From Prorocentrum cordatum (lineage: Eukaryota), in assembly GCA_963575745.1 (NCBI GenBank), contig CAUYUJ010000069.1, positions 62,001-118,755 on the forward strand: 56,755 bases of DNA, given 5' to 3'. This document shows, in pieces, positions 3,150-56,375 of the stretch. Position numbers and translations under genes: made by a program. The notes beneath the pieces were generated by a model, which ran no database searches, was not told the DNA's origin, and worked only from the letters and a program-made list of their open reading frames with translations. Position 1 is the first letter of the stretch. Each line of letters starts with the position of its first letter.

Positions 3150-3337
3150 AACGGGATTGACTCATCGAGGTCTTCCCAATCGTTGAGCACGATGCGACAG
3201 CGGCTGCTTGCGCGCCCAGATTTGGCCACATTGCGCCCCTTGCCCCCTTGTCTGGGTGGGGGGAGGGGGGCCGGCGACTGCAATCGGCGGCGATCTTCTC
3301 AGAAGGGGGAGAAGTCAGACGGGGCGGGCCGTCTCAG

Positions 3338-3499
3338 TCAGGAGGGAAAGAAACACACAGACACAATTAATCGTCGATCCCCAGGGAAATATGCGAAAAT
3401 ATGGGAAGTGGTGGGGAAGACAAAAAACCAGAAAATATTGAAAATATAGGGGATATTTTTATTTGTGTGTATTTATTTGTGTGTTTGTGGGCCCCTTCA
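3338..3499. mobile_element. MITE family F (162 bp), 5-bp TSD
   Basis: tcaggaggg...acacacagacacaat...gccccttca; TSD ctcag/ctcag; nested in family H (3284-3657). Confidence 0.85.
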
Positions 3500-8931: not shown

Positions 8932-9420
8932 TACCACGCTCAAAGACAGCCCTGCTTTGTTGTTGTTTCTGGCCACTGGGTGGCCGAGGCCCGGCGCCTC
9001 TGAACTGGTTCGGCCGCGCGCGCCCCCCCCCCCCCCCAAAAGAAAACTCAGGAGGGGGAAAAAAAACACACACAGACACAATGAATCGTCGACTCCCCAG
9101 GAAAACATAGGAAAATATTGGAAGTGGGGGGGAAAACAGAAACCCAGAAGATATGGGAAATCATGGGGAATCTTTTTTTTTGTGCGTCTTGACTTGTATG
9201 CCCTGGGGCCCCTCCATTTCTGGCCGAGGCCCGGCGCCTCTGGCCTGGTTCGGCCGCGCGCGCCCCCCCCCCCCAAAAAAAACCCTTTCCCCGGGAACGC
9301 AAAAACACGCGCGCGCCCCCTCCCCAAAAAAAACCTTTCCCCGGGAACGAAAGAACACGCGCGAGGGCGAAACTCGAGGGCGGAAAAGAGGGGGGGGATG
9401 ACAAGGGGGGGGGGGATATC

Positions 9421-9615
9421 TCGGGCCGGGCGAAAGGGGGGGATTGGGAAAGGGGGGGGGTACGAAATTTGCTGCATGCAGCTGTTTCGGCCTCACCGAG
9501 GGGCCCATTCCTCGATACATAGCCGCCTCCGGCGCCGGGAGGCGCCGGGAAAATCAGCTACGTGAGCTGATTCTCAAACCCCCCCTTTGCTATCCCCCCC
9601 TTTCGCCCGACCCGA
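9421..9615. mobile_element. MITE family E (195 bp), 5-bp TSD
   Basis: TIR tcgggccgggcgaaaggggggat / atcccccctttcgcccgacccga; TSD atatc/atatc. Confidence 0.9.
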
Positions 9616-9764: not shown

Positions 9765-9926
9765 TCAGGAGGGGAAAAAACACACAAACACAAATAATCG
9801 TCGATACCTCGAAAATATGGGAAAATATGGGAAGTGGGGGGGGAAGACAAAGACCCAGAAAATATGGGAAAATATGGGAATCTTATTATTTGTGTGTATT
9901 TATTTGTGTGTCCTGGGGCCCCTTCA
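9765..9926. mobile_element. MITE family F, 5-bp TSD
   Basis: TSD ctctt/ctctt. Further copies at about 9048-9216, 24636-24798, 32418-32564 (gatta/aatta), 35796-35970 (inverted) and 46470-46770. Confidence 0.85.
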
Positions 9927-16260: not shown

Positions 16261-16600
16261 TGTGCGTCGCGTTGTGTTCGAGTGTAGATCCTTAATCGCC
16301 ACGGTCGTGCCGAAAAGACAGCGATGTTCAGCAGGTCCTCTTCACACAACGAGCGCCCGATGATTGAGAACTCCAATCCGCAGTAAGCTTGCGCACAGCT
16401 CGCATTTGCACAGGAGAGGGGGATTCAGGATAGGATATACTCGTTATCTGGTGCTATTATGGGATCCCACGAAACACACGGGTAAGCCAGCCAGGGCAGA
16501 ATATGGCTGCGGCGGGCACACGGGGGAGCGGCAGGGGAGCGCGACGGGGAACAGAAGGGGAGCCGAAGGGACGCGCACACGCACGCACTGCACAGCAGAT
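16261..16600 (-). repeat. Putative 3' LTR
   Basis: Aligns by eye with 25670-26014 (shared cgatgattgaga.ctccaatccgc, acacgggtaag, gggaacagaaggggagc, gcgcacacgcacgcact), roughly three-quarters identical. Confidence 0.65.
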
Positions 16601-16849
16601 CTAAAAGCTCTGGAAAATCGCTGCTCCTCTCAGCCTCACGGTCGCTGGCGCAGAGATCGGCGCTCTTGGCCTCTGCCCGGCTGCGCCTGCGCACCCTGTG
16701 CGCGCTGCCATGGTCGTCTCCTCGCTCACGACTCACACTGTTTCGAGCCGCAGCAGCTCCCACCCCTGAGGTCCATCTTCGCTCTCCGCTTCGTCCTTCC
16801 ATCCACCAGCATGTCCAGAAAGTTTGCAGCGAATCTCGCGGCCCGCTGT

Positions 16850-17439: not shown

Positions 17440-17684
17440 TCGGGAGCCTTGAGACGGGGGTCAATGCAAACGGGGGTCAGCCACGGCACTGGATCCTGCA
17501 GGATCTTGCGAAGACCCTCTCTGGCTGACCCGGGTTAGCGAGCCGCTCGTGGCCGCGAGGCGGCCGCACATATTGGCTGAACCGGGTTTGCGAAGACCTG
17601 CGTTGCAGTTTTTTTTTCCTGCATTGCAGTTTTTGGTTTCCTGCTGACCCGGGTCTGGATTGACCCGGGTCAGAAGATCCCCGA
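17440..17684. mobile_element. MITE family I, 5-bp TSD
   Basis: TSD ctccc/ctccc; interrupts pol between RT and RNase H. Confidence 0.9.
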
Positions 17685-18740: not shown

Positions 18741-18810
18741 CGTTCTCATCTGAGACCTGAGATGCTGCCCTGATGAATCAGTCATTGCTAGCGCTCCCCT
18801 CGCTAGTTTA

Positions 18811-19005
18811 TCGGGCCGGACGAAAGGGGGGGATTGGGAAAAGGGGGGGTACGAAATTTGCTGCATGCAGCTGGTTTCGGCCCCGCCGAGGGGCCCATTC
18901 CTCGATACATGGGCGCCTCTGGCGCCGGGAGGCGCCAGGAAAATCAGCTGCGTGAGCTGATTCTCAAGCCCCCCCTTTGCTATCCCCCCCTTTCGCCCGA
19001 CCCGA
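18811..19005. mobile_element. MITE family E, 5-bp TSD
   Basis: Near-identical to 9421-9615; TSD gttta/gttta. Confidence 0.9.
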
Positions 19006-19166: not shown

Positions 19167-19372
19167 TCGGGGGAGCGTAAGACCCGGGTTTGCCAGGACT
19201 CGGGTTCGCCATCGTTTTTTGACGACCGCGCCTCGGATTTTGACGAGGAGGAGTTTCGTGGGATGTCTGCAGCGGGAGGCCTCGTCAAAATGCAGGCTCG
19301 GCCTCGTCATTTTTTTGACGACCTCGTCGGGGATTTCCGAGTCCCCTGTACCCAGGTCTTACGTCCCCCTGA
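19167..19372. mobile_element. MITE family B (206 bp), 5-bp TSD
   Basis: TIR tcggggg(a)gcgtaagacc / ggtcttacgtccccctga; TSD cagtt/cagtt; empty site visible in the next repeat unit (about 19510-19530). Confidence 0.9.
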
Positions 19373-19756: not shown

Positions 19757-19986
19757 TCAGAGCCCCGAATCATCAGGGGTAACTCGGGTCAGGGATAACT
19801 CGGGTTCGTTTTTCGGGAATCCAAACCCGAGTTACCCCGGACCCGAGTTACCCCGGATAACTCGGGCGTCCAGAGCCCCGAATCATCAGGGGTAATTCGG
19901 GTCAGGGCTAACTCGGGTTCATTTTTCGGGAACCCAAACCCGAGTTACCTCGGACCCGAGTTACCCCGGATAACTCGGGCGTCCAA
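19757..19986. mobile_element. MITE family C dimer, 5-bp TSD
   Basis: TSD gatgc/gatgc; empty site at about 19050-19075. Confidence 0.9.
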
Positions 19987-22324: not shown

Positions 22325-22567
22325 TTGGGGCCTAAGAGAGGGGGTCAGTGCAAACGGGGGTCAGCCAGGGCACTGGATCCTGCAGGATCCTGCGAACACC
22401 TTCTCTGGCTGACCCGGGTTAGCGAGCCGCTCGTGGCCGCGAGGCGGCCGCGCATATCGGCTGACCCGGGTTTGCGAAGACCTACGTTGCAGTTTTTTTG
22501 TGTTGCATTGCAGTTTTGGTTTCCTGCTGACCCGTGTCTGGATTGACCCGGGTCAGAAGATCCCCGA
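22325..22567. mobile_element. MITE family I, 5-bp TSD
   Basis: TSD agcca/agcca; removal restores the integrase frame WL|RVFGP. Confidence 0.9.
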
Positions 22568-23039
22568 AGCCATCACCGACAGAAGGCCAGCCAGACATCC
22601 TAAGGAGCCTCTTTGCCCTTCGGGACCCTTTGGAACATCGAGCAGTGGGTGCCCCACTTAGTGGCGTAGAGGTGCGGCAACCGCTCCTGGTTGCCCTCCT
22701 TGATGCAGATCAGGATGATGCCGGCCGCGTGGCTCATGCGGTAGAACTTGGGAATCGCACCTACTCTCCCCGGTTTTGGCCGCACATGAGCCTTGCACAC
22801 ATCGCACTCGAACGGCGTCTTCGCCCACAATATCAGGTTGGTTCGAAGTCTTCTTCAGTCGGAGAGCACAACAGAAGTCCACCTCGTGCATTTCCCCGAT
22901 CATCATGTTCCCCGTCTCGTTGGGTTCCGAGCCGACGTTCACTTCCTCTCCGTCCGGTGGTGATTCCTCAGATGCCTCCGCATCCTCGTCTCCGCCATCT
23001 CCTTCGCCCTCTTCATCTTCTTCGGCATACAACCCCCGG

Positions 23040-23745
23040 TGATGAGGCTCTCGTACTCGTGGTCGCCCTTGCACTTCTTTTCGAGCTCCGCCGCGATGAT
23101 GTGAGAGTTGGTGATGAAGGTCGTCGGCTTCTTCCAGCTCTTGCCCTCAGCGCCTCGAAGACCGAATCGTCATTGATCCGCATGAACGACGAAGACGCCA
23201 TCCAGATCCATGAGCGCCTGCATCTCGGGCGCCCAGAGGCTCTTGACGGTGCGGGTGATCGAAGGGAACCGACTTCCCCATCGCGTGAGCGACGCAAAGC
23301 AAACGGGGTCGTCTGCGCCGACGTGGGCGCATGAGTTCCCCGCGTACGGCACGCGCGTAAGCGCCCTCGTCTCCATGTTGGCGTGCCGCGCGGGTGGCCC
23401 GCGAGAGCAGCGGCGTCAGGTCGCTGGGCCACCTCACATAACATCCGCTTTTGATCGTCGCCCAGGTGCCCTTTGGCCAAAACCTTGATGGTGAAGCATA
23501 GGCGTAGCTGTCCAGCACTCAGGTGCGCCATAGCCTTCTTGGGGTCCATCCGAGGATAGTTCCTCTCCGTCAGTACGCACACGGGGCCACACAACGGAGT
23601 ACCCACCGCCAGATCTGGATCCCGAGCACGAGCATTTGCAAGGCAATCTGCCCACCTTTACATCGTACGCCACTCCACCTCCCTCGCCCGACTTCTCAAG
23701 CTCCTCAGTGACCCTCGGCATGGAGTACATATCCTCGACCTTGAT
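23040..23745 (-). pseudogene. C5 DNA methyltransferase-like domain of the retroelement polyprotein
   Basis: Reconstructed across frameshifts and one insert: VEDMYSMPRV...AYDVKVG...DPDLAVGTPLCGP...GKSVPFDHP...SLW...GVFVVHADQ*RFGL...KKPTTFITNS...CKGDHEY. Order and spacing resemble DNMT motifs I, II, IV (PC), VI (ExP) and VIII. Confidence 0.6.
23299..23477. mobile_element. Small insertion in the DNMT-like domain
   Basis: Degenerate inverted ends, caaa on both flanks; removal rejoins CFTIKVL to the GKSVPFDHP segment. Confidence 0.55.
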
Positions 23746-25364
23746 GTTCCGCATCTTGCGGATCTCCATCAGCCGCTGGTGCGCCACGTCTTTCTTCTCC
23801 TTGTCTACGAAGGTGAAGTTGTCCTCGACCTCCCAGTTCAGCAGGACCACCTGGTCCTCGAGATCGCTCTGCACCTCCTCGAACTACTGCTCGAACTGCC
23901 CGTCCGCCAGCCTCCACCACCTGCTGCCCGCCACGAAGACTCGGTCATGCTGCACTCCTCGCCGTCTTGAGTAGCTGGTCGCTGTTGATCAGGATGACGC
24001 CGTCCCCGTTCTGGTCCTTCTCGTCGCCAATGCTCAGCTGGTCCCACCTGGTCAGCTTCCCGGGGCTGATCTCCTCCAGGTCCTTCAGTTGTCCTCCCCG
24101 AGCCACCATCCGCAGCCGTCGTACTCTATATCTGTTCCTCGCCACGCTGCGGACCCCTTTCCGTTCTGGTTTTGGTACGTCTTTTGGCAGTGGCTTCTTC
24201 CACTCCTCAGATTCAGGGGAACAAAAAGTGGCATAAACATAACAACTCGGAGGTCCGCTCGGGTTTCTCGGATCGGCGCTGGGGCCCCCCGGCGGCGCCT
24301 CCGGCGCCGCCCCTGGCGCGCTCCGCGCGCCAGGGAGGGGGGTCCAGCGCCGATCCGAGAACTCCGCGCGGACCTCCGAGTTTTTATGTTTATGCTCCCC
24401 TATCGATTATTTGTATGCCATTATTTGTTTTATGTTTTTTTTAGTTTTTATGTTTTATGCCATTCTTTGTTCCCCTAGCTCGATTCCCTGACTCGAGCTT
24501 GTCTGTGCTGCTGGGCGTGTGGGTGCTGGCTTCGGCCAGGCTTCCCTGCGTGCGGGCCTCGGGGTGCAGCTCGCCGCACGCCTCCTCCGGCCGGCTCCTC
24601 CCGCAGTCGTGTGCGGGGTTCTTGCCCTGTATTTGTCAGGAGGGAAAAAAACACACAGACACAATTAATCGTCGATTTCCCAGAAAATATGGGAAAATAT
24701 GGGAAGTGGTGGGGAAGACAAAAACCCAGAAAATATGGGAAACCATGGGGGATATTTTTTTTTGTGTGTATTTATTTGTGTGTTCCAGTTCCCCTTCATG
24801 AATGTCATGGCAGCCGTCCGCCCATGCCCTGGAGCTTCTCGATTGCATGCGCACACTGGCTCACCGTCGTCTCGAACTGGCCCGCCGTCTCCTGCAGCGG
24901 GCAGCTCAGCAGCCACTTCAGCGAAGCCGGTCCTGTGGGAACGTTTTTCCCGATCATGAAACTTGCACGTCCCGCCCATGCACGTGTGGAAATAGTCCCC
25001 TGATCTCTCGCCCTTTGGGTCCAACATCATGTACCTTCGTACCTTCTTGTACTTGATTGCGCCCTTTTTGCTGCCCACCGTCGTCTCCATCGTCTCCACG
25101 CACTGGCAGCATCCACCTTCCGCTCTGGATAGTACACCGCCCCTGGATAAACTCCTCTTGGCTCGGTAGTCGCCGGTCCTGTGGGAATGTCCGCCGTGCC
25201 CTGCCACGGCGTGAGCTCCTCCCTCCAGCCCCTGCACACGCCACCTCGGGGGTGCTGCCGCCGCAGCCCGGCGGAGGCTCTCGACCCTGCCGCCTTGGCC
25301 GCGGCCCCTTTCGGCTTGACCTCCTTCGTCCTCCTCTCCAGCCGTTACTGCTGCCTATGGGAAC

Positions 25365-25669: not shown

Positions 25670-26014
25670 TGTGACATGAGTGTTCGCTAATGTGTTCCGA
25701 GGCCTGTACCACTGAAAATGCCACGATGTTGAGCAGGTCTTTTTCGCACGACGGGCGCACGATGATTGAGATCTCCAATCCGCCCTCCGTGTCGCCAGAA
25801 ACTCGCGCACAGCCCGCACTTGCACAGTTGAGGGAGAGTCGGGATAGGATTTGCTTGGTATCTGGTGTTGTTCTGGAATCTCAGGAGAAACACGGGTAAG
25901 GCAGCCCGAGCAGGATACGGTTGCGTTGGCCCCGTTGGCACATGGATACGTCACAGGGAACAGAAGGGGAGCTGAAGGGAAGCGCACACGCACGCACTAC
26001 ACCGCAAATCGACA
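25670..26014 (-). repeat. Putative 5' LTR
   Basis: Direct repeat of 16261-16600. Bounded by tgt...aca (tgtgaca at about 25669, gaca at 26014). Ends 21 bp before the splice acceptor. Confidence 0.65.
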
Positions 26015-26035
26015 TGTGCATTGGACAAAACGAAG

Positions 26036-26662
26036 GTCAGCATTTTCGCGTGCGACGGCTACGCAGTGTACAGCAGCGATGAGACCGAAATCTCGGACGA
26101 CCTCGTGACGGCCAAGGTCGACAGCGACTTGAAGTGCGAGAAGGGTGGGGAGTTCGGCACGGCTCTGAACGTCGACATCTTCTTCCAGGTGTGGAAGAAG
26201 GTGGTGAACGATGGGGATTACGCAGATTATGACTGGACTGTGAAAGCAGATCCTGATGCAGTGTTCTTCCCCGCGCGCCTCAAATCGGTTCTCTTGGCGC
26301 ACCCGATCGTGCAGGGTGGTGTCTACTTGGTCAATTGCCCCCGTGGATTGCACGGTCCCGTTGAGGTATTTTCAAGGGAAGCGGTTGAGAGATTGTTCTA
26401 CGGTTGGGAGCAGTGCACACAGCATTTTACTCAACAGTGTTCGGGCGACTGCATGTGGGGAGAAGACATGTTCGCCGACCAATGCTTGAGCAAGGTCCTC
26501 GGCGTGAGGTGCGAGCACGACACTAAGATCCTCATCGAGGATGCCTGTGACCCGCCGCCAGGATGGCTTGACTGCCCACCCAGCATGGGGGATGTCGTGT
26601 CCTTGCATCCGTTCAAGACGCCTGAGCGGTACGAGGCCTGCATGACCTCCTCGCAGAGGTGA
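26036..26662 (+). CDS. Downstream exon of a Cys-rich protein with WTVKADPD (DxD) motif, putative Fringe/GT31-like glycosyltransferase
   Basis: Only long, undisrupted, non-repetitive coding-like frame in the window (ORF 26021-26662). No ATG start; acceptor cgaag|gtc. DYDWTVKADPDAVFF, GPVEVFS and WGEDMF motifs resemble GT-A/GT31 enzymes. The function call is less certain than the coding call. ag|gtgatg at the end could be a further donor. Confidence 0.85.
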   Translation, partial: VSIFACDGYAVYSSDETEISDDLVTAKVDSDLKCEKGGEFGTALNVDIFFQVWKKVVNDGDYADYDWTVKADPDAVFFPARLKSVLLAHPIVQGGVYLVNCPRGLHGPVEVFSREAVERLFYGWEQCTQHFTQQCSGDCMWGEDMFADQCLSKVLGVRCEHDTKILIEDACDPPPGWLDCPPSMGDVVSLHPFKTPERYEACMTSSQR

Positions 26663-28069
26663 TGTTGCTATCCGGCGGCCTGCTCTAACGCCCGCCACCG
26701 TGCCAGCGCAGTCGACGTGCATGAAGGATGGCTCTGCCGAGCCGTTCCCAAGCAGGCTGACAGAGCCATCTTCGGGGCTTTGCCCATCAGGCAGCGCCAC
26801 GATACCAACACGCGTCGCGGCTGTACCCATCGGTCGTTGATAGTAGGTCTGTTCAGAGATTCCCCGATTCCAGTCAATTTTAGTCGGAAAGTGGATATAC
26901 GTTACTAGTGTACAGGATTTGTTGGGTCGAGGACGACGTCGGGGTGGTGTGGCGTATACGTTTGAATGTGGATAGAGTTCGGTTCCTTATGTAGACGTCT
27001 TCTTACTACCTTAGTTAGGCGTCTTCCTACCCAACGTGTCGAGCAAGTTTCCCTCTTCCCTTCTCTTCAGGGGGAACCTGTTCTACTTTCACAGCCTTCC
27101 CACTTCATGTTTTTATCCAGTACTTCCGACCGATGGATAGCGAAGCAACGCTGTTGCGCTGTCTCTCGGGGGCTGGTTCGACATTTATCGCAGGCTTCTT
27201 GGAGCTCTCAAGCGCCCCCAGGCGCTCCTAGGTGCTCCCAGGCGCTTACAGGCGCTCCCAGGCGCTCCCAAGCGCTCCCAGGTGCTCCCAGGCGCCCCCA
27301 GACGCTCCCAGACGCTGTCAATCGTGCCCGATACTCACCAGGCGCTTCCCAAGCGCCCCCAAGTGCCCCAGGCACCCCCAGGCGCTCCAGACGCTCCACA
27401 TCTTGGGGAGTCCTCTCGGGGCAGTCTTTGGCTCGATGGTTCCACCAAGCTCTCCCGAAGAGGCTCGGTTGAGCCATCTCACGACCGTCTGCGCGTTCTT
27501 GCGATTGTCTTTGAGCCTTCTTGGGTCGGTATTGGATTGTCTCGGGTTCGCATTTGACCGCTTTCGCGTCATCTTGGGCTGTCTTGTGGGCGTCTTGGGA
27601 TTGCCCGAAGTTTCACCACGGCGATCTCAAGCCAACATGATCGACCCACGAACCCGGAAAGAAACCCAGAACTGCGCTGCTTGGGGACGCTTCCAGGCAC
27701 CTCAACTGAGCAAGGGACGCGCCACGGCAGGGAGGAGGGAGGAGGGAGGAGGGAGGAGGGAGGAGGGAGGAGGGAGGAGGGAGGACGTCAGTTGACGTGC
27801 CAGGGCGCCGCGCCGCGCGACCAGAGGGGGACGCGCCGCGGAAGATGCCAAGGGGGACGCGCCACGGAACGTGCCAGCGGACGTGCCAGGGGGCACGTTG
27901 CGCGACGTGCCCATGATGGCCCTGGTTTCCACCACCACCATAAGTTGGAGGGGGAGGGGGTCGTCCTCCTCCACCACCTCCTTCTCCTCCTCGTCCTCCT
28001 CCTCGTCCTCTGCCTCCTTCCCCCCTCCAGCTTATGGTGGTGGTGGTGGAAAACGTCACGATGCTTTGT

Positions 28070-28808: not shown

Positions 28809-28907
28809 TACAGGGCAGTTTCTATACATAGGATTTTGAAGAAACTCTGAATTATTATACATGATTAATTTATGAATAAATGTATGCATACACTCATCGT
28901 TGTTTTT

Positions 28908-30143
28908 CCCAACCATCCTGTGGTGTTGGGTCCTCGTTTTGGAGAGACGTCGCCCCGCGCTCCTCCTTCCTCCTCCTTCCTCCTCCTCCCCTTCCTCCCC
29001 CCTCCTCCCCCTCCCACACCCATTCTGGCACACCCCTCACACGTTTCGTGGCCCCATAGGGAGCTCCACCGAAGGCCCCAGTGGCTGCGCCCGCATGCGG
29101 TTCCACCCCCCATTCTGGCACACCCCTCACACGTTTCGTGGCCCCATAGGGAGCTCCACCGAAGGCCCCAGTGGCTGCGCCCGCATGCGGTTCCACCCCC
29201 CATTCTGGCACACCCCTCACACGTTTCGTGGCCCCATAGGGAGCTCCACCGAAGGCCCCAGTGGCTGCGCCCGCATGCGGTTCCACCCCCCATTCTGGCA
29301 CACCCCTCACACGTTTCGTGGCCCCATAGGGAGCTCCACCGAAGGCCCCAGTGGCTGCGCCCGCATGCGGTTCCACCCCCCATTCTGGCACACCCCTCAC
29401 ACGTTTCGTGGCCCCATAGGGAGCTGGCCCCATAGGGAGCTCCACCGAAGGCCCCAGTGGCTGCGCCCGCATGCGTTTCGTTCCACCCCCCATTCTGGCA
29501 CACCCCTCACACGTTTCGTGGCCCCATAGGGAGCTCCACCGAAGGCCCCAGTGGCTGCGCCCGCATGCGGTTCCACCCCCCATTCTGGCACACCCCTCAC
29601 ACGTTTCGTGGCCCCATAGGGAGCTCCACCGAAGGCCCCAGTGGCTGCGCCCGCATGCGGTTCCACCCCCATTCTGGCACACCCCTCACACGTTTCGTGG
29701 CCCCATAGGGAGCTCCACCGAAGGCCCCAGTGGCTGCGCCCGCATGCGGTTCCACCCCCCATTCTGGCACACCCCTCACACGTTTCGTGGCCCCATAGGG
29801 AGCTCCACCGAAGGCCCCAGTGGCTGCGCCCGCATGCGGTTCCACCCCCCATTCTGGCACACCCTTCACACGTTTCGTGGCTCCATAGGGAGCTCCACCG
29901 AGCGCCCCAGTGGCTGCGCTCGCATGCGGTTCCACCCCCCATTCTGGCACACCCCTCACACGCTTCGTGGCCCCATAGGGAGCTCCACCGAACGCCCCAG
30001 TGGCTGCGCTCGCATGGGTTCCACCCCCCCATTTCGGCACACCCCTCACTCGTTTCGTGGCCCGGGGGCGCCACCGAGGATATATTATATCCACAATTGC
30101 GGTATTCACAACTACGTATGGTTGGGTCTTTCGTCATGCTAAT
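28908..30143 (+). mobile_element. Helitron2/Helentron-like non-autonomous element carrying about 11 near-identical 90-bp units
   Basis: Terminal tt|cccaaccat forms a hairpin with gttggg; inverted copy atggttggg lies about 17 bp inside the other end; inserted in a T-run of MITE V with no TSD. Confidence 0.75.
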
Positions 30144-30556
30144 TAATACTAAACCCTGCGTTTTTAATACATGATCCTCACGCGGAGCATGTATTAAAAA
30201 CTGCACTGCGATTGGTCACACCGTGCCAGGCCCCCCGGGCCAGGACCCCTCGCAGATCACGCTGCGCCCGCCCCCCTACACCCCAAACCCTAAACCATCA
30301 AGACGAAAAGCATTGCGTATTAAGCAAGCCCGAGCGACAGCAAGCATGACGCCATCGCGACGCTCCCAAGCTCTCCGACGCTTCTCCAGGCGCTGCAAAG
30401 CGCTCCCAGGCGCTGCCGGGCAAGCCCAGGCGCTTCGAGGCGCGCCCAAGCGCTCCGTGCGAGCCGGAGCACTTCGTGCGAGCTGGCACGAGCGGGCCGT
30501 CCGAAATTGGGCCGGGACGTACCGGGGCCCAAAACCATATCAAATCATGACAAAAA

Positions 30557-30931
30557 ATAGCCTGGCGAAGGACCCAACCATATGCAGTTGTGAGTAATGC
30601 TGGTGTGTGTGAGTACCGTCTTCGGTGGATCTCCCTATGGAGCCACGAAACGTTTGAGGGGTGTGCCGAAATGGGTGCGGGGGCGGCATGCGAACGTTGC
30701 CACTGGAGCCTTCGGTGGAGCTCCTTATGGGGCCACGAAACGTGTGAGGGGTGCACCGAAGTTGGTGTGGGGGCGGCATGCGAACGCACCCCCTGGGGCC
30801 TTCGGTGGAGCTCCCTGTGGGGCCACGAAACGTGTGAGGGGTGTGCCGAAATGGGTGGTGGGGAGGCATGCGAACGCAGCCACTGGGGCCTTCGGTGGAG
30901 CTCCTTATGGGGCCACGAAACCACGAAACGT
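30557..30931 (-). mobile_element. Same Helitron2-like family, truncated by the gap
   Basis: atagcctggcgaaggacccaaccatatgcag followed by 90-bp units. Confidence 0.7.
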
Positions 30932-31031
30932 NNNNNNNNNNNNNNNNNNNNNNNNNNNNNNNNNNNNNNNNNNNNNNNNNNNNNNNNNNNNNNNNNNNNN
31001 NNNNNNNNNNNNNNNNNNNNNNNNNNNNNNN
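30932..31031. other. Assembly gap (100 N)
   Basis: N run; true distance unknown. Confidence 1.
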
Positions 31032-31392: not shown

Positions 31393-31674
31393 ATTAATAC
31401 GTAGTTCAAATTCCCAAGCACCTCGTTGTGCTTCTGCCCACCCACCGCGCATCACCGTCGCCGTCTACGAGAGACAGGGCATCTCTGAGAAGCGTCAGCT
31501 GGTTGCCAGACTGGGTCGCCCATGCAGCCGTAGGCTGCCCCCCTTTGGGGAGTCGCGGTTCAAAGATAAACTGTCCCTTGATCTTCGAAAAATATGACAC
31601 CCTAGACCCAGAGACTTTCGCGCTTCGTACCTCCCCTAGTTCCCCTCCGACACGTAAAAGCACTTGTGGAACGC

Positions 31675-31925
31675 TCTAAGCGCCTCTGGGCGCACTTGGG
31701 AGCGCCTGGGAGCGCCTGGGAGCGTCTGGGAGCGCTTGGGAGCGCCTGGGAACGCCTCGGAGCGCCTGGGAGCGTGCGGGAAGCGCTTGGGAACGCCCGG
31801 GAGCGCCTGGGAGCGCTTGGGAGTGCCTGGGATCGCCGGGCAACGCCTGGGAGCGCCTAGCAGCGCCTGGCAGCGCCTGGCAGCGCCTGGCAGCGCCTGG
31901 CAGCGCCTGGGAGCGCTTGGAGCGC
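31675..31925. repeat. 10-bp satellite (gagcgcctgg)n
   Basis: Reverse-orientation arrays at about 27200-27400 and 30360-30460. Confidence 0.85.
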
Positions 31926-33759
31926 ATTGGGAATTTAGAGGCCGGCGGCCCCAAACCCTAAAAGGCTTTCGTTTGGGATGTCGCCGGCCATGCGGCCGGG
32001 GGTGGGAAGTGGTTTCGCCAAGCTTGATCGGGTCGGCTAAACGCCCCCCCAATCAAGCTTGCCGAAAGGGGGGCAGCCTTGCCTTGACTGTCGGCCGCTG
32101 CGCGCCCGAGAAGCCCTAAACCCTAAACCCTGGGCCAGGATCCCTGAGTAGGACCACGCTGCGTCCGCGGCCTCCGTGCCACGGTCGCCTCACAGACTAA
32201 TTACGCTGCGCCTGCGCTCCCACCGGCCACGATGCCGCCCGCGGGGGCCACGGTCGTTCGCAAAAGCTGCGCCGCGGCCGCGCTCTCCCGGGGCCGCTAT
32301 CCCTCATGAGTTGCGCCCTGTCCGCGCCCCGTTCCTCCTCCTCCTCCTCCTCGTCCTCCTCCTCCTCCTCCTCCTCCTCCTCCTCCTGCCCCTGGGGCCA
32401 CGATGCATGGCTGATTATCAGGAGGGGAAGAAACACACAGACACAATGAATCGTCGATTCCCCCGGAAAATGAGGAAAATGTGGGAGGCGTGGGGGGGAA
32501 GGGAAAATATGGGGCATTTTATTTGTTTTTTGTGTATTTACTTGTGTGTCCCAGGGCCCCTTCAAATTAGGCAAGCTGCGTGCGCGCTCCCGGGAATCTC
32601 CTGCGCATCCCCGGGGCGCCCAGGTCGTGCCAGTGCTGCAGGACAAGCGCTCCGCGCGAGCCGTTTCCCAGGGATTGGGCCGACAGGGCGCACCACCTTC
32701 GAGCGGACACGCGCGAAGTTTGCCTGTGCTCGTAGCCTGTGAGGTCTCAGAGCCTCCAGACGTCGTCGTTTGTCGAGGAATGTGTTCAAAACGCACCGCG
32801 CCTTTTTTTTTGCCGAAGGAGACGGAAGTCTGCGGACTCCGGCGAGGATCCGAGGTGGGGGGGGCGCACGTTCTTCGAGCGGGCACGCGCGAAGCGTATT
32901 CTTTCAACTCGCAATCACACTTTACTTGGGTTTGTACCGAGCGGAAGTTGGCCGGCCCACCCCCAGCATGGCACCGGGGACAGCTTGAACACTACAAGAG
33001 AACCTTGGGCCGACGTCTTTCCCAGGAAGGAGTGTGGTAAGCTGAATCACGATCGACCCACGAACCCGGAACGGATTTAAGAAACGCAAGGCATAGCTAC
33101 GTTTTCAAGACACTGTATTGGGCGGCACGTAATTGCACTGCTGATTGAATCGATCGTGATGTACCGTACCAAGGATTGTGCTGTGCTCTGCGGTGCGGAA
33201 ATCAGGTGTGATGTGCCCCGATGAAGTGCGTTGTGCTCTACAGCGCTGTGGATCAAGTCGCCCTTGGCATCCTAATCCTGACCGACGTGATCGGGATCTC
33301 AAGCTCGAGCTGCCTGAGCGCATATCTGGCCCAGAGCTGGTTGCAGTCGAAACTTGTGTGACGCTTCATCAGCTCGAGCTCCAGATCCGACTCGGTTCCG
33401 AAACGGAACGAGGTGACACGGGGTGCAGGGCGTGTGGACGCGCCAACGAATGCGCAAAGGGCGCACAGGGGAGGAGGAGGAGGAAGAGGAGGAGGAGGAG
33501 GAGGAGGAGGAGGAGGAAAACGAGGAGAAAGAGGAAGTGGAGGAGGAGGAGGAGGAGGAGGAGTAGGAAGAGGAGGAGGAGGAACAAGAGGAGGTGGAGG
33601 TGGATGATGAGGAGGGGACGTCAGGGAACGTGGCAAGGGACGCGCCACGGAATAGGCAGGGAAAGCGCTAGGGGACAAGGCCAGGAACGCGACAGAGGAC
33701 AAGCCAGGGGGCGGCCGACGGGGGAAGGGGCATGCGTAGCTCCACACGCCTTCGCGCTG

Positions 33760-39258: not shown

Positions 39259-42089
39259 AATTATTTTAGCGAAGGAAACAACCATATGCAGCTGCGCGTG
39301 CCGCAACAGTGAGTATCTTTTTTCGGTAGCGATCTTCAGGGGGCCACGAAACGCATGAGTGCTGTGCCGGGGCCTTCGGTGGAGCTCCCTGTGGGGCCAC
39401 GAAACGTGCAATGGGTGTGCCGACATTGGTGTTGTGGGCGCATTGGAACGCAGCCACAGGGGCCTTCGGTGGAGCTCCCTGTGGGGCCACGAAAATTGTG
39501 AGGGCTGTGCCGCATTGGGTGCGGTGGGCGCATGCGAACGCAGCCACTGGGGCCTTCGGTGGGGCTCCTGGTGGGGCCACGCAACGTGTGAGGGGTGTGC
39601 CGACATAGATGCGGTGGGCGCAAGCGAACGCAACCACAAGGGCCTTCGGTGGGGCTCCCTGTGGGGCCACCAAACGTGTGAGGGGTGTGGCGAAATGGGT
39701 GCGGTGGGCGCATGTGAGCGCAGCCGCTGGGGCCGTCGGTGGGTTCCCTGTGGAGACACTAAACGTGTGAGTGGTGTGCCGACATGGGTGCGGTGGGCGC
39801 GTGCGAACGCAGCCATTGGGGCCTTCGGTGGAGCTCCCTGTGGGGCCACGAAAAAATTGTGCGGGCTGTGCCGCACTGGGTGCGGTGGGCGCATGCGAAC
39901 GCAGCCATTGGGGCCTTCGGTGGAGCTCCTTGTGGGGCCACGCAACGTGTGAGGGGTGTGCCGGCATGGGTGCGGTCGGCACATGCGAAAGCAGCAATTG
40001 AAACCTTCGGTGGAGTTCCCTGTGGGGCCACGAAGCGTGTGAGGGGTGTGCCGAGCTGCAGCGTGCGGTGGGCGCGTGCGAACGCAGCCATTGGGACCTT
40101 CGGTGGGGTTCCTGGTGGGGGCACGAAACGCGCGAGGGGTGTGCCGGCATGGGTGCGGTGGGCGCATGCGAAAACAGCCACGTGGGTACTTCGGTGGAAC
40201 TCCATGTGGGGCCACGAACCGTGTGAGGGGTGTGCCGAACTGGGTGCGGTGGGCGCATGCGAACGCAGCCACTTGGGCCTTCGGTGGAATTCCCTGTGGG
40301 GCCACGAAACGTGTGAGGGGTGTGCCGAACTGGGTGCGGTGGGCGCATGCGAACGCAGCCGCTGGGGCCCGCGGTGGAGCTCCCTGTGCGGCCACGAAAC
40401 GTGTAGGGGGTATGCCGAACTGGGTGCGGTGGGCGAGCGCAGCCATTGGGGCCTTCGGTGGAGCTCCCTGTGGGGCCACGAAAATTGTGAGGGCTGTGCC
40501 GAAATTGGTGCGGTGGGCGCATGCGAACACAGCCACTTGGGCCTTCGGTGGAGCTCCCTGTGGGGCCACGAAACATGTGAGGATTGTACCGAAATGGGCG
40601 CGATGGGTGCATGCGAACGCAGCCATTGTGGCCTCCGGTGGAGCTCCCTGTGAGGCCACTAAACGTGTGAGGGGTGTGCCGAACTGGGTGCGGTGGGCGC
40701 ATGCGAACGCAGCCACTGGGGCCTTCGGTGGATTTCCTTGTGGGGCCACGAAACGTGCGATGGGTGTGCCGGACTGGGTGCGGTGGGCGCATTCGAAAGC
40801 AGCCCTTGGGGCCTTCACTGGAGCTCTATGTGGGGCCGCGAAACTTGTGAGGGGTGTGCCGAACTGGGTGCGGTGGGCGCATGCGAACGCAGCCACTGGG
40901 GCCTTCGGTGGGGTTCCTTGTGGGCCACGAAACGTGTGAGGGGTGAGACGACATGGGCGCGGTCGGCGCATGCGAACGCAACCGTTGGGGCCTTCGGTTC
41001 AGTTCCTTATGGGGCCATGAAACAATTGTAAGGAGTGTACCGAAATGGGTGCGGTGGGCGCATGCGAACGCAGCCACTGGGGCCTTCGGTGGAGCTCCCT
41101 GAGGGGCCACGAGCCGTGTGAGGGCTGTGCCGAAATGGGCGCGGTGGGCGCATGCGAACGCAGCCACTGGAGCCTTCGGCGGAGCTTCCTGTGCGGCCAC
41201 GAAACGTGTGAGGGATGTGCCGGAGTGGGCGCGGTGGGTACATGCGAACGCAGCCATTGTGGCCTCCGGTGGGATTCCTTGTGAGGCCACTAAACGTGTG
41301 AGGGGTGTGCCGAAATGGGTGCGGTGGGCGCATGCGAACGCACCCATTGGGTCCTTCGGTGGGACTCCCTGTTGGGCCACGAAACGTGTGAGGGGTGTGC
41401 CGAAATGTGTGCGGTGGGCGGATGCGAACGCAGCCAGTGTGGTTTTCGGTGGAGCTCCTTGTGAGGCCACTAAACGTGTGATGGGTGTGCCGAACTGTGT
41501 GCGGCGGGCGCATGTGATCGCAGCCGCTGGGGCCTTCGGTGGGGCTCCCTTTGGGGCCACGAAACGTGTGAGGGGTGTGCCGGACTGGGTGCGGTGGGCG
41601 CATGCGAACGCAGCCACTGGGGCCCTCAGTGGGGCTCCCTGTGGGGCCACGAAACGTGCGAGGGGTGTGCCGAAACGGGTGCGGTGGGCACATGCGAACG
41701 CAGCCACTGGGGGGGTCGGCGGAACTCCCTATGGGGCCACGAAGCGTATGAGGACTGTACCGAAATTGGTGCGGTGGGCGCATGCGAACGCAGCCACTGG
41801 GGCCTTCGGTGGAGCTCCCTGTGGGGCCACGAGACGTGCGAGGGGTGTGCCGAACTGGGTGCGGTGGGCGCATGCGAACGCAGCCACTGGGGCCTTCGGT
41901 GGAGCTCCCTGTGGGGCCACGAAACGTGTAAGGGGTTTGCCGAAATGCAGAGGGAAGGAAAGGAAAGGACAGGAGAGAGGGCGGCGCTCTTGTGGGAGCA
42001 GGGAGGAGGCGCGGGAGGAGGAGAGGAGAGGAGGAGTGACGCGGGGCCGTCCTTCGAAACGAGGACCCAGCACCACAGGATGGTTGGGA
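39259..42089 (-). mobile_element. Same Helitron2-like family, about 29 diverged 90-bp units (39340-41946)
   Basis: Ends gcgaaggaaacaaccatatgcag and gacccagcaccacaggatggttggg. Confidence 0.75.
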
Positions 42090-45000: not shown

Positions 45001-46841
45001 CAGATACGCAAAAAACAGTCCCCATATCATGTTTTGAATAGTATTTCATATTTTGGGGTTTTGTATGTTTCGTCAAAAATCCCCCTGGAGGGGGACAGGC
45101 CCGACATGAGGCTATCATCGCTCGTAGGTCACACTGCGCCCGCTTCCCCAGGGCAGCGGCCCTTCGCAAGCTGCGCCGCGCCCGGGCTCCGAAGGCCGCG
45201 GCTTTCCCGGCGAGGTGCGCTGAAGGCGCGCTCCCGGTGCCGAAATCCACTGTGATGTGCGCTGCGTCCACGCCCCCAGTGTTAAGGAGGACGAGGAGGA
45301 CGAGGAGGACGAGGAGGACGAGGAGGAGGAGGAGGAGGAGGAGGAGGAGGAGGAGGAGGAGGGGGGGGAGGAGGGCCTGGGGGCGATTGTTTGACTATTT
45401 TGGAGTATTTGCAATGTATGTTTTAATTTTTAAAATGTTTCACCCAGAATCCCCCTGTAGGGGGACACGCCCGACCCTCACCCCAGTGTCACGATCAATT
45501 GAACAGTACGCTAGGTTCGCGCTCCCAGCGCAACGTTCCCTTGTGAACCACGTTGGAGTCGCGCTCCCAAGGCCAGGATCCCTGGCAAATGGCACTGGGG
45601 GCGCGGCCCGGCCCTGGGGCCACGGCCCCTTCGTACACGACGTTGCGTCCGCGCTACCAGGGCCGCGATCGTGCAGGAGTTGCGCGGCGTCCGCGCTCCC
45701 AGGGCCATGACCCCTTGTAGAGTACGCTGGGCTCGCGCCCCCAGGGCCACGATCCTTCGCAGAGTACGCTGCAGTGGAGGCCCATGCCAAGAAACACCCC
45801 GCTTGCCTCCAGGGTGCCCTGGCTTTCTCGGGTTTCGAGGGTGTTGCTACGGAAAGCGCGGCGCTCCCGCACCGAAACTCAATGGACGTCCTGGGGTGGA
45901 GTCTCAGGGTTGGGTTTCTTGTGAAAGGTTTCTTGTGGTCGGGCCCATACTGCATCCACGGCCACGACCCCTTGAAAATTGCGCTGCGCCCGCACGATCC
46001 CCCAGGAATGGCGCTGCTTCCGCTCGTACCCCCGCTGGCCGCGACGCCTTGCAACCTGCGCTGCGTCCGATGCTCCCAGGGTTACAAAGCACGGCGCGGA
46101 GGTTGTCCAAGAAGCACCGTCCGAGCGATGCCAAAGATCAAGGGGGACGTCACCACCCACCAAACCGCCCCAACCCAACCCGAAGGCTCGGACTTACCCT
46201 CGATTTCCAGTGGGGGGGGGGGTCGGGGACCATCGAAAAAACACGCGTGGAACCCTTACCCCCCCCAACCCGAAATTCGGGCCTTCGGGCTGGGTTGGGG
46301 TGGTCTGGTAGGTCGTCAGGACGACATCGACCGACGACTCGGCGAGGCGCCGCCGATGCATCGGCGACGGGCCCCCGCGGGCGAGCCCGCACGCCCCCTC
46401 GCCGGGCTGGGGCCGCCGGGCCCCCGCCGGCGCTCGGCGGGCGACGGAGGGCGGCTGCTCGCCTGCCGGAGGGGCCCTGGGACACACAAATAAATACACA
46501 GATAAAATCAAGAGGGGAGAAAACACACACAGACACAATGAATCGTCGATTCCCAGAAAATCTGGGGAAGTATGGGAAGTGGGGGGGAAGACAAACACCC
46601 AGAAAATGTAGGAAACGATGGGGAATATGTTTATTTGCGTGTATTTATTTGTGTGTCCTGGGGCCCCTTCATAAAAGGATCCCCCATTTTTTCCCTCCAA
46701 ATTTTCTGGGTCTATGTCTTCCCTCCCACTGCCCATATTCTCCCACATTTTCAGGGGAATCGACGATGAATTGTTTCTCCTCCGGAACCTGCCAGAGCAG
46801 AGCCGGATGGAAGCGCGAAATCGAATCGGATCGGAACAAAA

Positions 46842-49740: not shown

Positions 49741-50144
49741 TTCGAGGCGAGAGAGGGGGGGGTAATGAGAAGGAGAAGGCCTTCTCAGAAGGCGGCGGGA
49801 CTTCTCAGAAGGCCTCCAGGCCTTCTGAGAAGTTTTTGTCTGTCCTCGGGTGAAGGCTTGGAAAACTCCTCAGAGGTCACGGGGACTTCGGAGCCTTCTG
49901 AAAAGGCCTTCTCCTTCTCGGGCCGGGCGAAAGGGGGGGATTTGGAAAGGGGGGGTTACGAAATCTGCTGCATGCAGCTGGTTTCGGCCCCACAGAGGGG
50001 CCCATTCCTCGATACATGGGCGCCTCCCGGCGCGGGGAGGCGCCGGGAAAATCAGCTACGTGAGCTGACTCTCAAACCCCCCTTTGCTATCCCCCCCTTT
50101 CGCCCGACCCGACCTTCTCACTTCCCCCCTGGGCGCGCCGCCTA
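49741..50144. mobile_element. MITE family H (ttctcagaagg motifs)
   Basis: TSD gttta/gtttg; second copy at 3284-3657 with TIR tcggcggcg / cgccgccga. Confidence 0.7.
49918..50112. mobile_element. MITE family E, 5-bp TSD
   Basis: TSD ccttc/ccttc; nested in family H, which is nested in family G. Confidence 0.9.
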
Positions 50145-51141: not shown

Positions 51142-51937
51142 TCGGGCCGGGCGAAAGGGGGGGATTGGGAAAGGGGGGGTTACGAAATCTGCTGCATGCA
51201 GCTGGTTTCGGCCCCACCGAGGGGCCCGTTCCTCGATACATGGCCGCCTCCGGCGGCGCCGGGAGGCGCCGGGAAAATCAGCCCGGAGGCGCCGGGAAAA
51301 TCAGGGGTGTTGGGACTCAATATATCAGGAATAGGGCCCAATTCAATGCAATCCGGATAAATACGTGGCAATATCCATTGTTGTGGTGATAGCAGTGCAC
51401 AATTATATTCCTTGCCGGATGCCTTGAACTGTGGTAACGATCATTTTTTTCGGGCGTGTCCCCCTACAGGGGTCGGGCCGGGCGAAAGGGGGGGATTGGG
51501 AAAGGGGGGGTTACGAAATTTGCTGCATGCAGCTGGTTTCGGCCTCACCGAGGGGCCGTTCCTCGGGCGTGTCCCCCTACAGGGGTGTTTGGACTCAATC
51601 TATCAGGAATAGGGCCCAATTCAATGCAATCCGGATAAATACGTGGCAATATCCATTGTTGTGGTGATAGCAATGCATAATTATATTCCTTGCCGGATGC
51701 CTTGAACTGTGGCAACGATCGTTTCTGTTTCCTTCGTTTTTTCGGGGGCTCTTCGAAAGGGGGGGATTGGGAAAGGGGGGGTTAAAAACTTGCTGCATTC
51801 AGCTGGTTTCGGCCCCACCGAAGGGCCCGCTCCTCGATACATAGCCGCCTCCGGCGCCGGGAGGCGCCGGGAAAATCAGCTACGTGAGCTGATTCTCAAA
51901 CCCCCCCTTTGCTATCCCCCCCTTTCGCCCGACCCGA
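51142..51937. mobile_element. Rearranged, composite family E copy
   Basis: Outer TIRs with TSD tacag/tacag. Interior has repeated E halves and a duplicated segment of about 135 bp (51305-51440, 51585-51720). Confidence 0.75.
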
Positions 51938-55980: not shown

Positions 55981-56375
55981 TCGGGGTTCGAGAGACGGGG
56001 GTCAGTGCAAACAGGGGTCAGCCGGGAGGCGGGAGGCGGGAGGCGGGAGGAGGGAGGAGGGAGGAGGGAGGAGGGAGGGAGGAGGATGGAGGAGGGAGGA
56101 GGGAGGAGGAGGGAGGAGGAGGGAGGGGGGAGGGGGAGGGGGGAGGAGGGAGCAGGGAGCAGGGAGCACAGGGCAACCGGATCCTGCAGGATCCTGCGAA
56201 GACCCCCTCTGGTTGACCCGGGTTTGCGAGCCGCTCGTGGCCGCGAGGCGGCCGCGAGTATGTGCTCACCCTGGTTTGCGAAGACCTGCTTACTTGCAGT
56301 TTTTGTTTCCTGCATTGCAGTTTTGAGTTTCCTTCTGACCCGGGTCTGGATTGACCCGGGTCAGAAGACCGCCGA
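55981..56375. mobile_element. MITE family I with internal heptamer (GGGAGGA) tract
   Basis: Homologous to 17440 and 22325; no matching TSD. Confidence 0.8.

Follow-up and report, generated by a model that had tools for sequence, protein, structure and literature searches.

DNA methyltransferases (DNMTs) carried by retrotransposons are known from long interspersed nuclear elements (LINEs), from DIRS elements and from Gypsy-like elements, and they are cited as cases of mobile elements manipulating host epigenetics. The available text of one survey (de Mendoza 2018; PMC5890265) describes DNMTs in LINE and DIRS elements of Symbiodinium (SymbioLINE-Dnmt and SymbioDIRS-Dnmt3) and in a Gypsy element of Klebsormidium (KnitGypsy-Dnmt3), and reports that the SymbioLINE enzyme methylates CG de novo. 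It also describes the Copia superfamily as the most abundant retrotransposon group of Symbiodinium genomes and states that this superfamily "lacks any DNMT domain"; the list of known transposon-borne DNMTs in the available text of a preprint on EpiLTRs (bioRxiv 10.64898/2026.05.21.726589) holds no Copia case. Here we describe a 56,755-nucleotide stretch of the genome of Prorocentrum cordatum (assembly GCA_963575745.1, contig CAUYUJ010000069.1, positions 62,001 to 118,755 of the forward strand), called the window from here on, which contains a decayed long terminal repeat (LTR) retrotransposon of the Copia order. Ahead of its integrase, this element carries the remains of an extra domain of about 210 amino acids, which turned out to be a divergent homologue of the C5 cytosine methyltransferases.

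Like the SymbioLINE, SymbioDIRS, KnitGypsy and EpiLTR systems, some of which have Symbiodiniaceae hosts, the Copia element holds a methyltransferase-type domain within a retrotransposon. According to the available text of the two papers, however, those proteins are detectable with the Pfam model PF00145, on which the published surveys relied, keep all key residues in their authors' assessment, and reside in LINE, DIRS or Gypsy-like hosts. An earlier, sequence-only reading of the window had pointed to DNMT-carrying retrotransposons in Symbiodinium; these do exist, but PMC5890265, as far as its text is available, assigns them to LINE and DIRS elements and not to Copia. The SmTCL Ty1/copia elements of Symbiodiniaceae (PMC5776459) share with the present element the Copia order, with the integrase ahead of the reverse transcriptase (RT), and the host group; the available part of that article describes RT, integrase, RNase H and LTRs and does not mention an extra domain. 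Full-text searching of the literature found no report of this Copia domain in the papers and passages covered.

A hidden Markov model (HMM) of the family, built from 57 intact full-length domains, was run on the 56.7-kb window translated in all six frames. It gave three ordered minus-strand matches to the same domain of about 210 amino acids, not all in one frame, and the sole further match in the six frames (E value of 4.5) was not significant. The features of the window copy are listed below in window positions, with independent E values (i-E) for the HMM matches and protein numbers (P0003 and so on) for the relatives.

About 23763-22942, minus strand: extra domain, decayed copy (family HMM; tblastn, 23763-22978)
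23758-23883, minus strand: conserved stretch directly upstream of the domain, FEEVQSDLEDQVVLLNWEVEDNFTFVDKE..., which matches the N-terminal parts of the closest relatives P0003 and P0005
23757-23650, minus strand: domain piece 1, with VEDMYSMPRV (motif I-like strand) and AYD (motif II-like); HMM positions 5-40, i-E 7.8e-5
23648-23472, minus strand: domain piece 2, in a second frame, DPDLAVGTPLCGP, with motif IV, DPDLAVGTPLCGPVCVL, and the next helix; HMM positions 51-109, i-E 4.8e-7
23284-23471, minus strand, bounds approximate: extra non-homologous sequence of about 180 nucleotides, placed by the spacing between HMM pieces
About 23280-23248, minus strand: motif VI remnant GKSVPFDHPH, in a third frame (translation of the open reading frame [ORF] compared with the family consensus Gr.flfEHP; too short for the HMM)
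23244-22942, minus strand: domain piece 3, in the first frame again, with SLW, DQ(TGA)RFGL, KKPTTFITNS and CKGDHEY; HMM positions 126-221, i-E 5.8e-23
23167-23169, minus strand: in-frame TGA at the codon of the invariant Cys145 (DQC), a cysteine in 107 of 108 family domains

Each of the peptide strings quoted in the sequence-only reading was found on the minus strand, spread over three frames between 23757 and 22942. The domain had been placed at 23040-23745, and this location held, although the bounds are slightly wider (about 23763-22942). Around 10 HMM positions (41-50) are missing from the window copy ahead of motif IV. Pieces 2 and 3 are separated by 227 nucleotides, whereas 16 HMM positions (48 nucleotides) would be expected, so that about 179 extra nucleotides interrupt the domain, in agreement with the insert that had been proposed at 23299-23477. 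This insert has no second copy within the window (blastn), its predicted folding is ordinary (z of -0.54), and clear splice ends are lacking by eye. Piece 3 shares 35 to 45% identity with the polyproteins of the relatives (tblastn). The copy has at least three frameshifts and carries substitutions at conserved sites (E8 to D, P64 to L, F68 to V, S69 to C, E115 to D and H185 to Y). Its motif IV reads TPLC, within DPDLAVGTPLCGPVCVL, compared with PdLvvSPPCgpFS.L in the family; in piece 3 the second histidine of the Cys/His cluster has become tyrosine, and the C-terminal YP..L helix is unrecognizable. With its HMM pieces out of frame, a TGA codon and an insertion, the window copy is dead and cannot make protein, as the sequence-only reading had also concluded.

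Relatives were obtained with phmmer, using as query (P0002) one frame of window positions 22939-23883, minus strand, with stops written as X, against 1.84 billion representative proteins. This gave 159 proteins at an E value of ≤1e-3, 4 of them at ≤1e-10; residues 7 to 78 of the query matched P0003 (53% identity, E value of 7.7e-16) and residues 13 to 78 matched P0005. A word-indexed protein search with the C-terminal piece gave no match, and the exhaustive phmmer search was required. When a small HMM was seeded on four short matches, the domain of about 210 amino acids was recovered in 146 of the 150 phmmer proteins listed. One domain match each was found in all of 59 further relatives (59/59), and the conservation profile has a single peak; a second methyltransferase-like module in tandem was thus not seen, although a more divergent one may exist.

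The architecture of these proteins is that of Copia polyproteins. Pfam detected rve and/or RVT_2 in 14 of 32 relatives, and in all seven full-length ones (2,184 to 2,587 amino acids, or about 2,500), where zf-CCHC lies at about residue 310, the domain at about 1,075 to 1,300, rve at about 1,420 to 1,510 and RVT_2 at about 2,050 to 2,210. A profile search for long proteins found 43 polyproteins; rve and/or RVT_2 occur in 34 of them, and PF00145 is absent from all 43 in precomputed Pfam annotation. The order domain, rve, RVT_2 was constant wherever these domains were detected. Intact elements thus carry the domain in a single polyprotein, between the gag/protease region and the integrase, where the linkers that flank it are poorly conserved, and the segment stays in frame with the integrase. 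The sequence-only reading had named intact relatives lacking the segment in frame as a refutation, and this condition did not apply. An alignment of 25 polyproteins keeps the HHCC and DDE residues of the integrase and a protease-like GVVDTAAQ block. That the extra domain might itself be the protease was rejected, since the relatives carry this separate conserved region (GVVDTAAQ..LLL..IDL) upstream of it.

Where a species is recorded, the polyproteins come from Fugacium kawagutii, Durusdinium trenchii, Cladocopium sp. Y103 and Symbiodinium sp. CCMP2456, under unspecific NCBI names ("Pol polyprotein from transposon RE1", "TY4B-J"); one further transcript is filed under Pyramimonas sp. CCMP1952, and most matches come from marine contigs. 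These data place the domain in a large lineage of very long LTR retrotransposons of the Copia order, which occur in dinoflagellates, including Symbiodiniaceae, and in other marine samples. One Durusdinium polyprotein (P0316, 2,524 amino acids) also has a GRF zinc finger (PF06839) in precomputed annotation, which suggests that some members of the lineage have further accessory modules.

Constraint was judged from protein conservation. Among 15 full-length polyproteins, the mean pairwise identity of the extra domain was 0.35 to 0.43, next to 0.35 to 0.44 for the integrase and 0.37 to 0.49 for RT and RNase H; the long spacer ahead of the domain reached 0.04 to 0.16 and the linker between domain and integrase 0.14. 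At the level of protein identity, the extra domain is thus conserved as strongly as the integrase. Locus finding with a single protein returned two loci only (94% and 37% identity).

At the sequence level, the link to canonical C5 methyltransferases was weak (see below) and that to a family of compact phage proteins was strong. Against this family, hhalign gave a probability of 96.0% (E value of 4.4e-9); when the trimmed alignment of 108 domains was used, the probability was 95.4% (E value of 1.7e-8), and the 169 aligned columns had PPC, E(H/N)P..W, KPT.F and (Y/I)P..L in register. The phage family itself reaches PF00145 in 8 of 8 members (best E value of 1.9e-7). Direct PHROG matches among 50 Copia domains fell on phrog_757 (8 domains, best E value of 3.9e-6), phrog_2882 (2 domains, best E value of 3.5e-4), phrog_363 (1 domain) and phrog_116 (1 domain), all four named DNA methyltransferase, and on one other family only. 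A single BLASTP alignment of P0009 with the C5-methyltransferase of phage Kopi, a protein that scores 260 bits with PF00145, placed PPCGPFS on FPCQPFS and FEHP on FENV, and the PPC cysteine also aligns with FPCQPFS of Dcm. PF00145 was the commonest weak Pfam match among the members; it was also the annotation of the nearest named ESM Atlas cluster to P0009 (0.86), which serves as a lead only. A tblastn search of phages with P0009 gave three weak matches, the best (E value of 0.4) to a C5-methylase gene. These comparisons identify the domain as a divergent C5 cytosine methyltransferase homologue, with the compact phage proteins (MAV1 MarMP, P087 gp15) as its nearest sequence relatives.

The compact phage and viral C5-methylase-like proteins (phrog_2882; MAV1 MarMP, P087 gp15, Tetraselmis virus 1) are of similar size to the Copia domain and, like it, have no large target-recognition domain. 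Both share PDL..SPPC..(F/W)S, E(N/H)P....W, KPT.F..N and a C-terminal (Y/I)P..L helix. In contrast to the Copia domain, the phage family still has Gly-x-Gly in motif I (FDSGNGS), is without the Cys/Cys/His/His set described below, and is encoded by free-standing genes, whereas the Copia domain is part of a polyprotein. Compact proteins of this kind (about 210 to 260 amino acids), annotated as C5 methylases, occurred in 120 phage records at or below the PF00145 threshold, for instance at L013:11474-12112 (P087 gp15).

Structure prediction was made for a relative and not for the window copy, with an alignment of 50 sequences headed by P0009. The AlphaFold2 model had a predicted local distance difference test score of 92.3 and a predicted template modeling (TM) score of 0.85, with alternating strands and helices. 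Foldseek returned 37 PDB matches at an E value of ≤1e-3, and the rows listed were all C5 methyltransferases (Dnmt2, EhMeth, DNMT3, DNMT1 and MET1). With VIA-align, Z was 11.8 for DNMT3B and DNMT3A and 11.7 for DNMT1 and M.HhaI, with 182 to 208 residues aligned at a root mean square deviation of 3.2 to 3.8 Å over model residues 1 to 216. A scan of 48,161 representative chains made without Foldseek ranked C5 methyltransferases in all of positions 1 to 10 (Z of 11.4 to 9.6). Among the viral models of BFVD, the best matches were proteins of about 210 amino acids: A0A0A0RJX0 (E value of 1.8e-8), a putative cytosine methyltransferase of Tetraselmis virus 1 (2.1e-6) and a putative DNA methylase of Lactococcus phage P087 (6.4e-6). 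The extra domain is therefore predicted, from this model, to have a class I methyltransferase fold in the C5-methyltransferase arrangement. The C5-methyltransferase likeness noticed in the sequence-only reading is thus borne out by three structure searches headed by these enzymes, by the phage C5-methylase profiles, and by the alignment of PPC with the catalytic PC and of EHP with ENV.

We then compared the residues of the domain with those of canonical C5 methyltransferases (PF00145: M.HhaI, Dcm, DNMT1, DNMT3A/B and Dnmt2), whose whole catalytic domain is covered by the shared predicted fold (Z of 11.8 to 8.7). Counts refer to 108 near-complete domains, in P0009 numbering. The motif IV Pro-Cys and the motif VI Glu are in register with the Copia domain, where motif IV is made up of P63 (103/108), P64 (98/108), C65 (107/108), F/Y68 (100/108) and S69 (92/108). 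Motif VI keeps its glutamate (E115, 106/108), while the Asn and Val of ENV are replaced by His (H116, 98/108) and Pro (P117, 107/108), followed by W123 (106/108). Unlike the canonical enzymes, the Copia domain has neither the motif I glycine loop nor Q-x-R-x-R, has EHP for ENV, and has almost lost the target-recognition domain, which is cut to about 35 residues. Lys-Pro-Thr is kept before the last strand. N-terminal conserved sites are E8 (invariant, 108/108), Y/F10 (106/108), R14 (94/108), D31 (106/108), G35 (100/108) and D37 (96/108); beyond motif VI, D143 (104/108), C145 (107/108), G148 (103/108), K160 (105/108), T162 (107/108) and N167 (100/108) are conserved, as are C179 (106/108), H183 (106/108), H185 (107/108) and Y199 (108/108) near the C terminus. 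The phage family alignment shows no equivalent of C145, C179, H183 or H185. This Cys/Cys/His/His set may bind zinc and replace the lost target-recognition domain, and K160 may stand in for the motif VIII arginine. The correspondences proposed for motifs I to III and VIII come from reading the predicted order of secondary structure and should be taken as tentative.

That the domain is real, that it is a C5-methyltransferase homologue, that it belongs to a Copia element and that the window copy is dead are statements which we hold with high confidence. A chance pattern in GC-rich junk DNA would fit the failure of Pfam to find any family at an E value of ≤0.01 in 8, and then 79, ORF pieces of the window, but it is at odds with HMM matches at i-E of 6e-23, 5e-7 and 8e-5, in the right order, on one strand and with nothing else scoring, and with the shared order of these pieces and the integrase, RT and RNase H along the relatives; together with the phmmer matches, these results refute the reading, whose probability is negligible. 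Several results do weigh against the assignment to C5 methyltransferases or against an enzyme of the usual kind. PF00145 stayed below threshold in every member (0/32 at an E value of ≤1e-3); at an E value of ≤10 it was found in 6 of 50 members, with a best E value of 0.029, and P0009 scored 13.6 bits against a cut-off of 22. A profile search of PDB sequences gave chance matches only (E value of 0.26 or worse), and hhalign against a Dcm-type alignment, for which the homologue search had yielded close orthologues only, gave a probability of 7 to 10%, on motif IV alone; outside this motif, the similarity to cellular DNMTs is too low for alignment. The motif III strand is absent from the predicted model, and generic Rossmann proteins reach Z of 9.5 and below in the scan of 48,161 chains, some 2 Z units under the C5 methyltransferases. 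Motif I reads E-V-(Y/F)-S-(P/E)-P-R-(V/F/I), where the residue after P/E is Pro in 81 of 108 domains (Gly in 10) and the following Arg is kept in 94; without a glycine in most members, the canonical loop for S-adenosylmethionine (SAM) is absent, and the sequence-only reading had rightly called this motif atypical. The Q-x-R-x-R of motif VIII is replaced by D-Q-C-x-(F/Y)-G-L, with K-K-P-T about 10 residues further on. Equating Y10, D31 and D37 with the residues of M.HhaI that contact adenosine, and K160 with its motif VIII arginine, is tentative, being based on strand order and on the roles of the M.HhaI residues; Cys65, too, could owe its conservation to metal binding and not to a role as nucleophile. 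A generic Rossmann-like domain with coincidental methyltransferase motifs might explain the short-chain dehydrogenases found at Z of 9.4 to 8.1 in the wide structure search and the low Foldseek TM-scores to PDB methyltransferases (0.32 to 0.50). We nevertheless consider it very improbable, given that C5 methyltransferases fill the top ten of 48,161 chains, that phage C5 methylases are reached by hhalign at 95 to 96% with four motifs in register, that four DNA methyltransferase PHROG families and just one other were matched directly, and that PF00145 is both the commonest weak Pfam match and the label of the nearest named ESM cluster.

What the domain does in live elements is more evenly balanced. 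It could be a noncatalytic module, that is, a pseudo-enzyme fold which binds nucleic acid or chromatin, for example as a tether of the integrase complex, or which is a structural part of the polyprotein; chromodomains serve chromoviruses as an analogous tether to particular DNA. The loss of the motif I glycine loop and of the motif VIII R-x-R, the reduction of the target-recognition domain to about 35 residues, Pfam scores under threshold and the constant position of the domain immediately N-terminal to the integrase all fit such a module, to which we give a substantial but minor share of the probability. It accounts less well for the retention of Cys65 (107/108) and Glu115 (106/108), which extends even to the most divergent subfamilies (8 members: C65 8/8, C145 8/8 and E115 7/8), or of the adenosine-contact positions Y/F10, D31 and D37. 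Pseudo-enzymes such as DNMT3L usually lack the catalytic Cys and Glu. Since both of these residues, and those on the adenosine side, are near-invariant here across sequences sharing down to about 25% identity, a catalytic role is favored. A catalyst of another kind, with C65, H116, C145, C179, H183 and H185 forming a metal centre on a methyltransferase scaffold and performing SAM-independent chemistry on nucleic acid or protein, would make sense of the six invariant or nearly invariant Cys/His residues, four of which (C145, C179, H183 and H185) are absent from the phage relatives, and of the noncanonical SAM loop. Yet no hydrolase or deaminase ranked above the C5 methyltransferases in the structural matches, and positive evidence for any particular chemistry is nil. 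Moreover, P0339 retains C65 and C145 but has lost C179, H183 and H185 as a group, which is easier to reconcile with a structural zinc site of its own than with a single catalytic centre, and we regard such an enzyme as improbable.

That the domain retains cytosine-directed catalytic activity in live elements is a possibility that we put slightly short of an even chance. It would then flip out cytosine and use Cys65 and Glu115 to attack it; most probably, such an enzyme would be a C5 methyltransferase that depends on SAM but has an unusual cofactor loop. The likely substrate would be the element's own cDNA or the DNA of the integration site, because the domain is made next to the integrase; RNA, as for Dnmt2, would be an alternative. 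The sequence-only reading had suggested that the domain might mark the cDNA or guide integration.

Whichever reading applies, a large Copia lineage carries a methyltransferase-derived domain that is invisible to the standard model, in a superfamily for which the published surveys, as far as their text is available, stated the absence of such a domain in Symbiodinium. If active, the domain would alter how many de novo methyltransferase genes are counted in the genomes of dinoflagellates and would indicate viral-type compact methylases as a source; if inactive, it would clearly exemplify an enzyme fold that was captured and then retained beside the integrase for another purpose. The most far-reaching proposal, that much of dinoflagellate Copia encodes a cryptic but active enzyme for cytosine modification, which descends from a compact viral-type C5 methylase and has acquired a new zinc module, is one that we consider rather unlikely. 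Were it true, the elements would methylate their own cDNA or insertion sites, and much de novo methylation in almost fully CG-methylated genomes would have a source that has been overlooked.

The remainder of the dead element was delimited by tblastn with the full-length relatives, which gave a minus-strand series (domain, integrase, RT and RNase H) colinear with them. This supports the Copia order proposed in the sequence-only reading, as does the succession of zf-CCHC, rve and RVT_2 in the relatives. Its parts are as follows.

22851-22564, minus strand: integrase zinc-finger CxxC and start of the catalytic core (tblastn, P0156 residues 1378-1472 and P0180 residues 1175-1269; E values of 1e-9 to 4e-6)
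21865-21713 and 21531-21088, minus strand: remaining integrase core and C-terminal region (tblastn, P0156 residues 1545-1582, E value of 5e-5, and 1601-1733, E value of 6e-14)
18711-18124 and 17966-17685, minus strand: Copia-type RT in two pieces (tblastn, P0156 residues 1980-2156, E value of 1e-33, 44% identity, and 2204-2286)
17440-16829, minus strand: RNase H and C-terminal end of the polyprotein (tblastn, P0156 residues 2304-2497, E value of 1e-20, and P0180 residues 2079-2291)
25714-26010, strand not given: possible 5' LTR remnant, tentative (blastn direct pair with 16312-16601)
16312-16601, strand not given: possible 3' LTR remnant, tentative (pairs with 25714-26010)
22327-22567, strand not given: dispersed repeat of about 240 bp inside the integrase (blastn; other copies at 17442-17684 and 56165-56375)

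The integrase CxxC motif, CDVCKAH, lies at about 22803-22780, and the part of P0156 that matches the RT of the window is the Pfam RVT_2 region in the relatives. Nothing upstream of the window domain matched the gag and protease parts of the full-length relatives by tblastn. The candidate LTR pair is one weak direct repeat (75.6% identity over 303 nucleotides, E value of 5e-31) that flanks the coding region, and its two copies may be old LTRs. Adjoining the possible LTR at 25714-26010, window positions 25976-26659 on the plus strand hold an open frame of 228 amino acids with protein-like composition (..DGDYADYDWTVKADPDAVFFPARL..) and no Pfam match at an E value of ≤0.01.

The window contains several families of short repeats (150 to 240 bp, 86 to 94% identity), with seven copies inside the dead Copia element (17442-17684, 18808-19005, 19167-19372, 19757-19986, 22327-22567, 24211-24394 and 24636-24799). 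The copies of the repeat of about 240 bp share 92.6% and 86 to 88% identity by blastn, and a repeat search agrees (family D9). A second family comprises 18808-19005, 9419-9615, 49915-50112 and 51754-51937, and a third one 24636-24799, 3337-3485, 9765-9911 and 46508-46672. These short dispersed repeats look like small nonautonomous mobile elements.

Elsewhere in the window, Pfam found nothing in 13 long ORFs, and no dinoflagellate spliced leader was present in the window, whose GC content is about 59%. Arrays with a period of 10 bp (units like CTGGGAGCGC) occur in both orientations at 27163-27400, 30341-30486 and 31636-31955. Tandem arrays of a repeat of about 90 bp, with about 80% identity between copies, occupy 28900-30150, 30620-30921 and 39369-41947, and an assembly gap of 100 N lies within this repeat region at 30932-31031. 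The arrays at 39369-41947 and 28900-30150 have opposite orientations, and the 90-bp arrays create long spurious ORFs on both strands.

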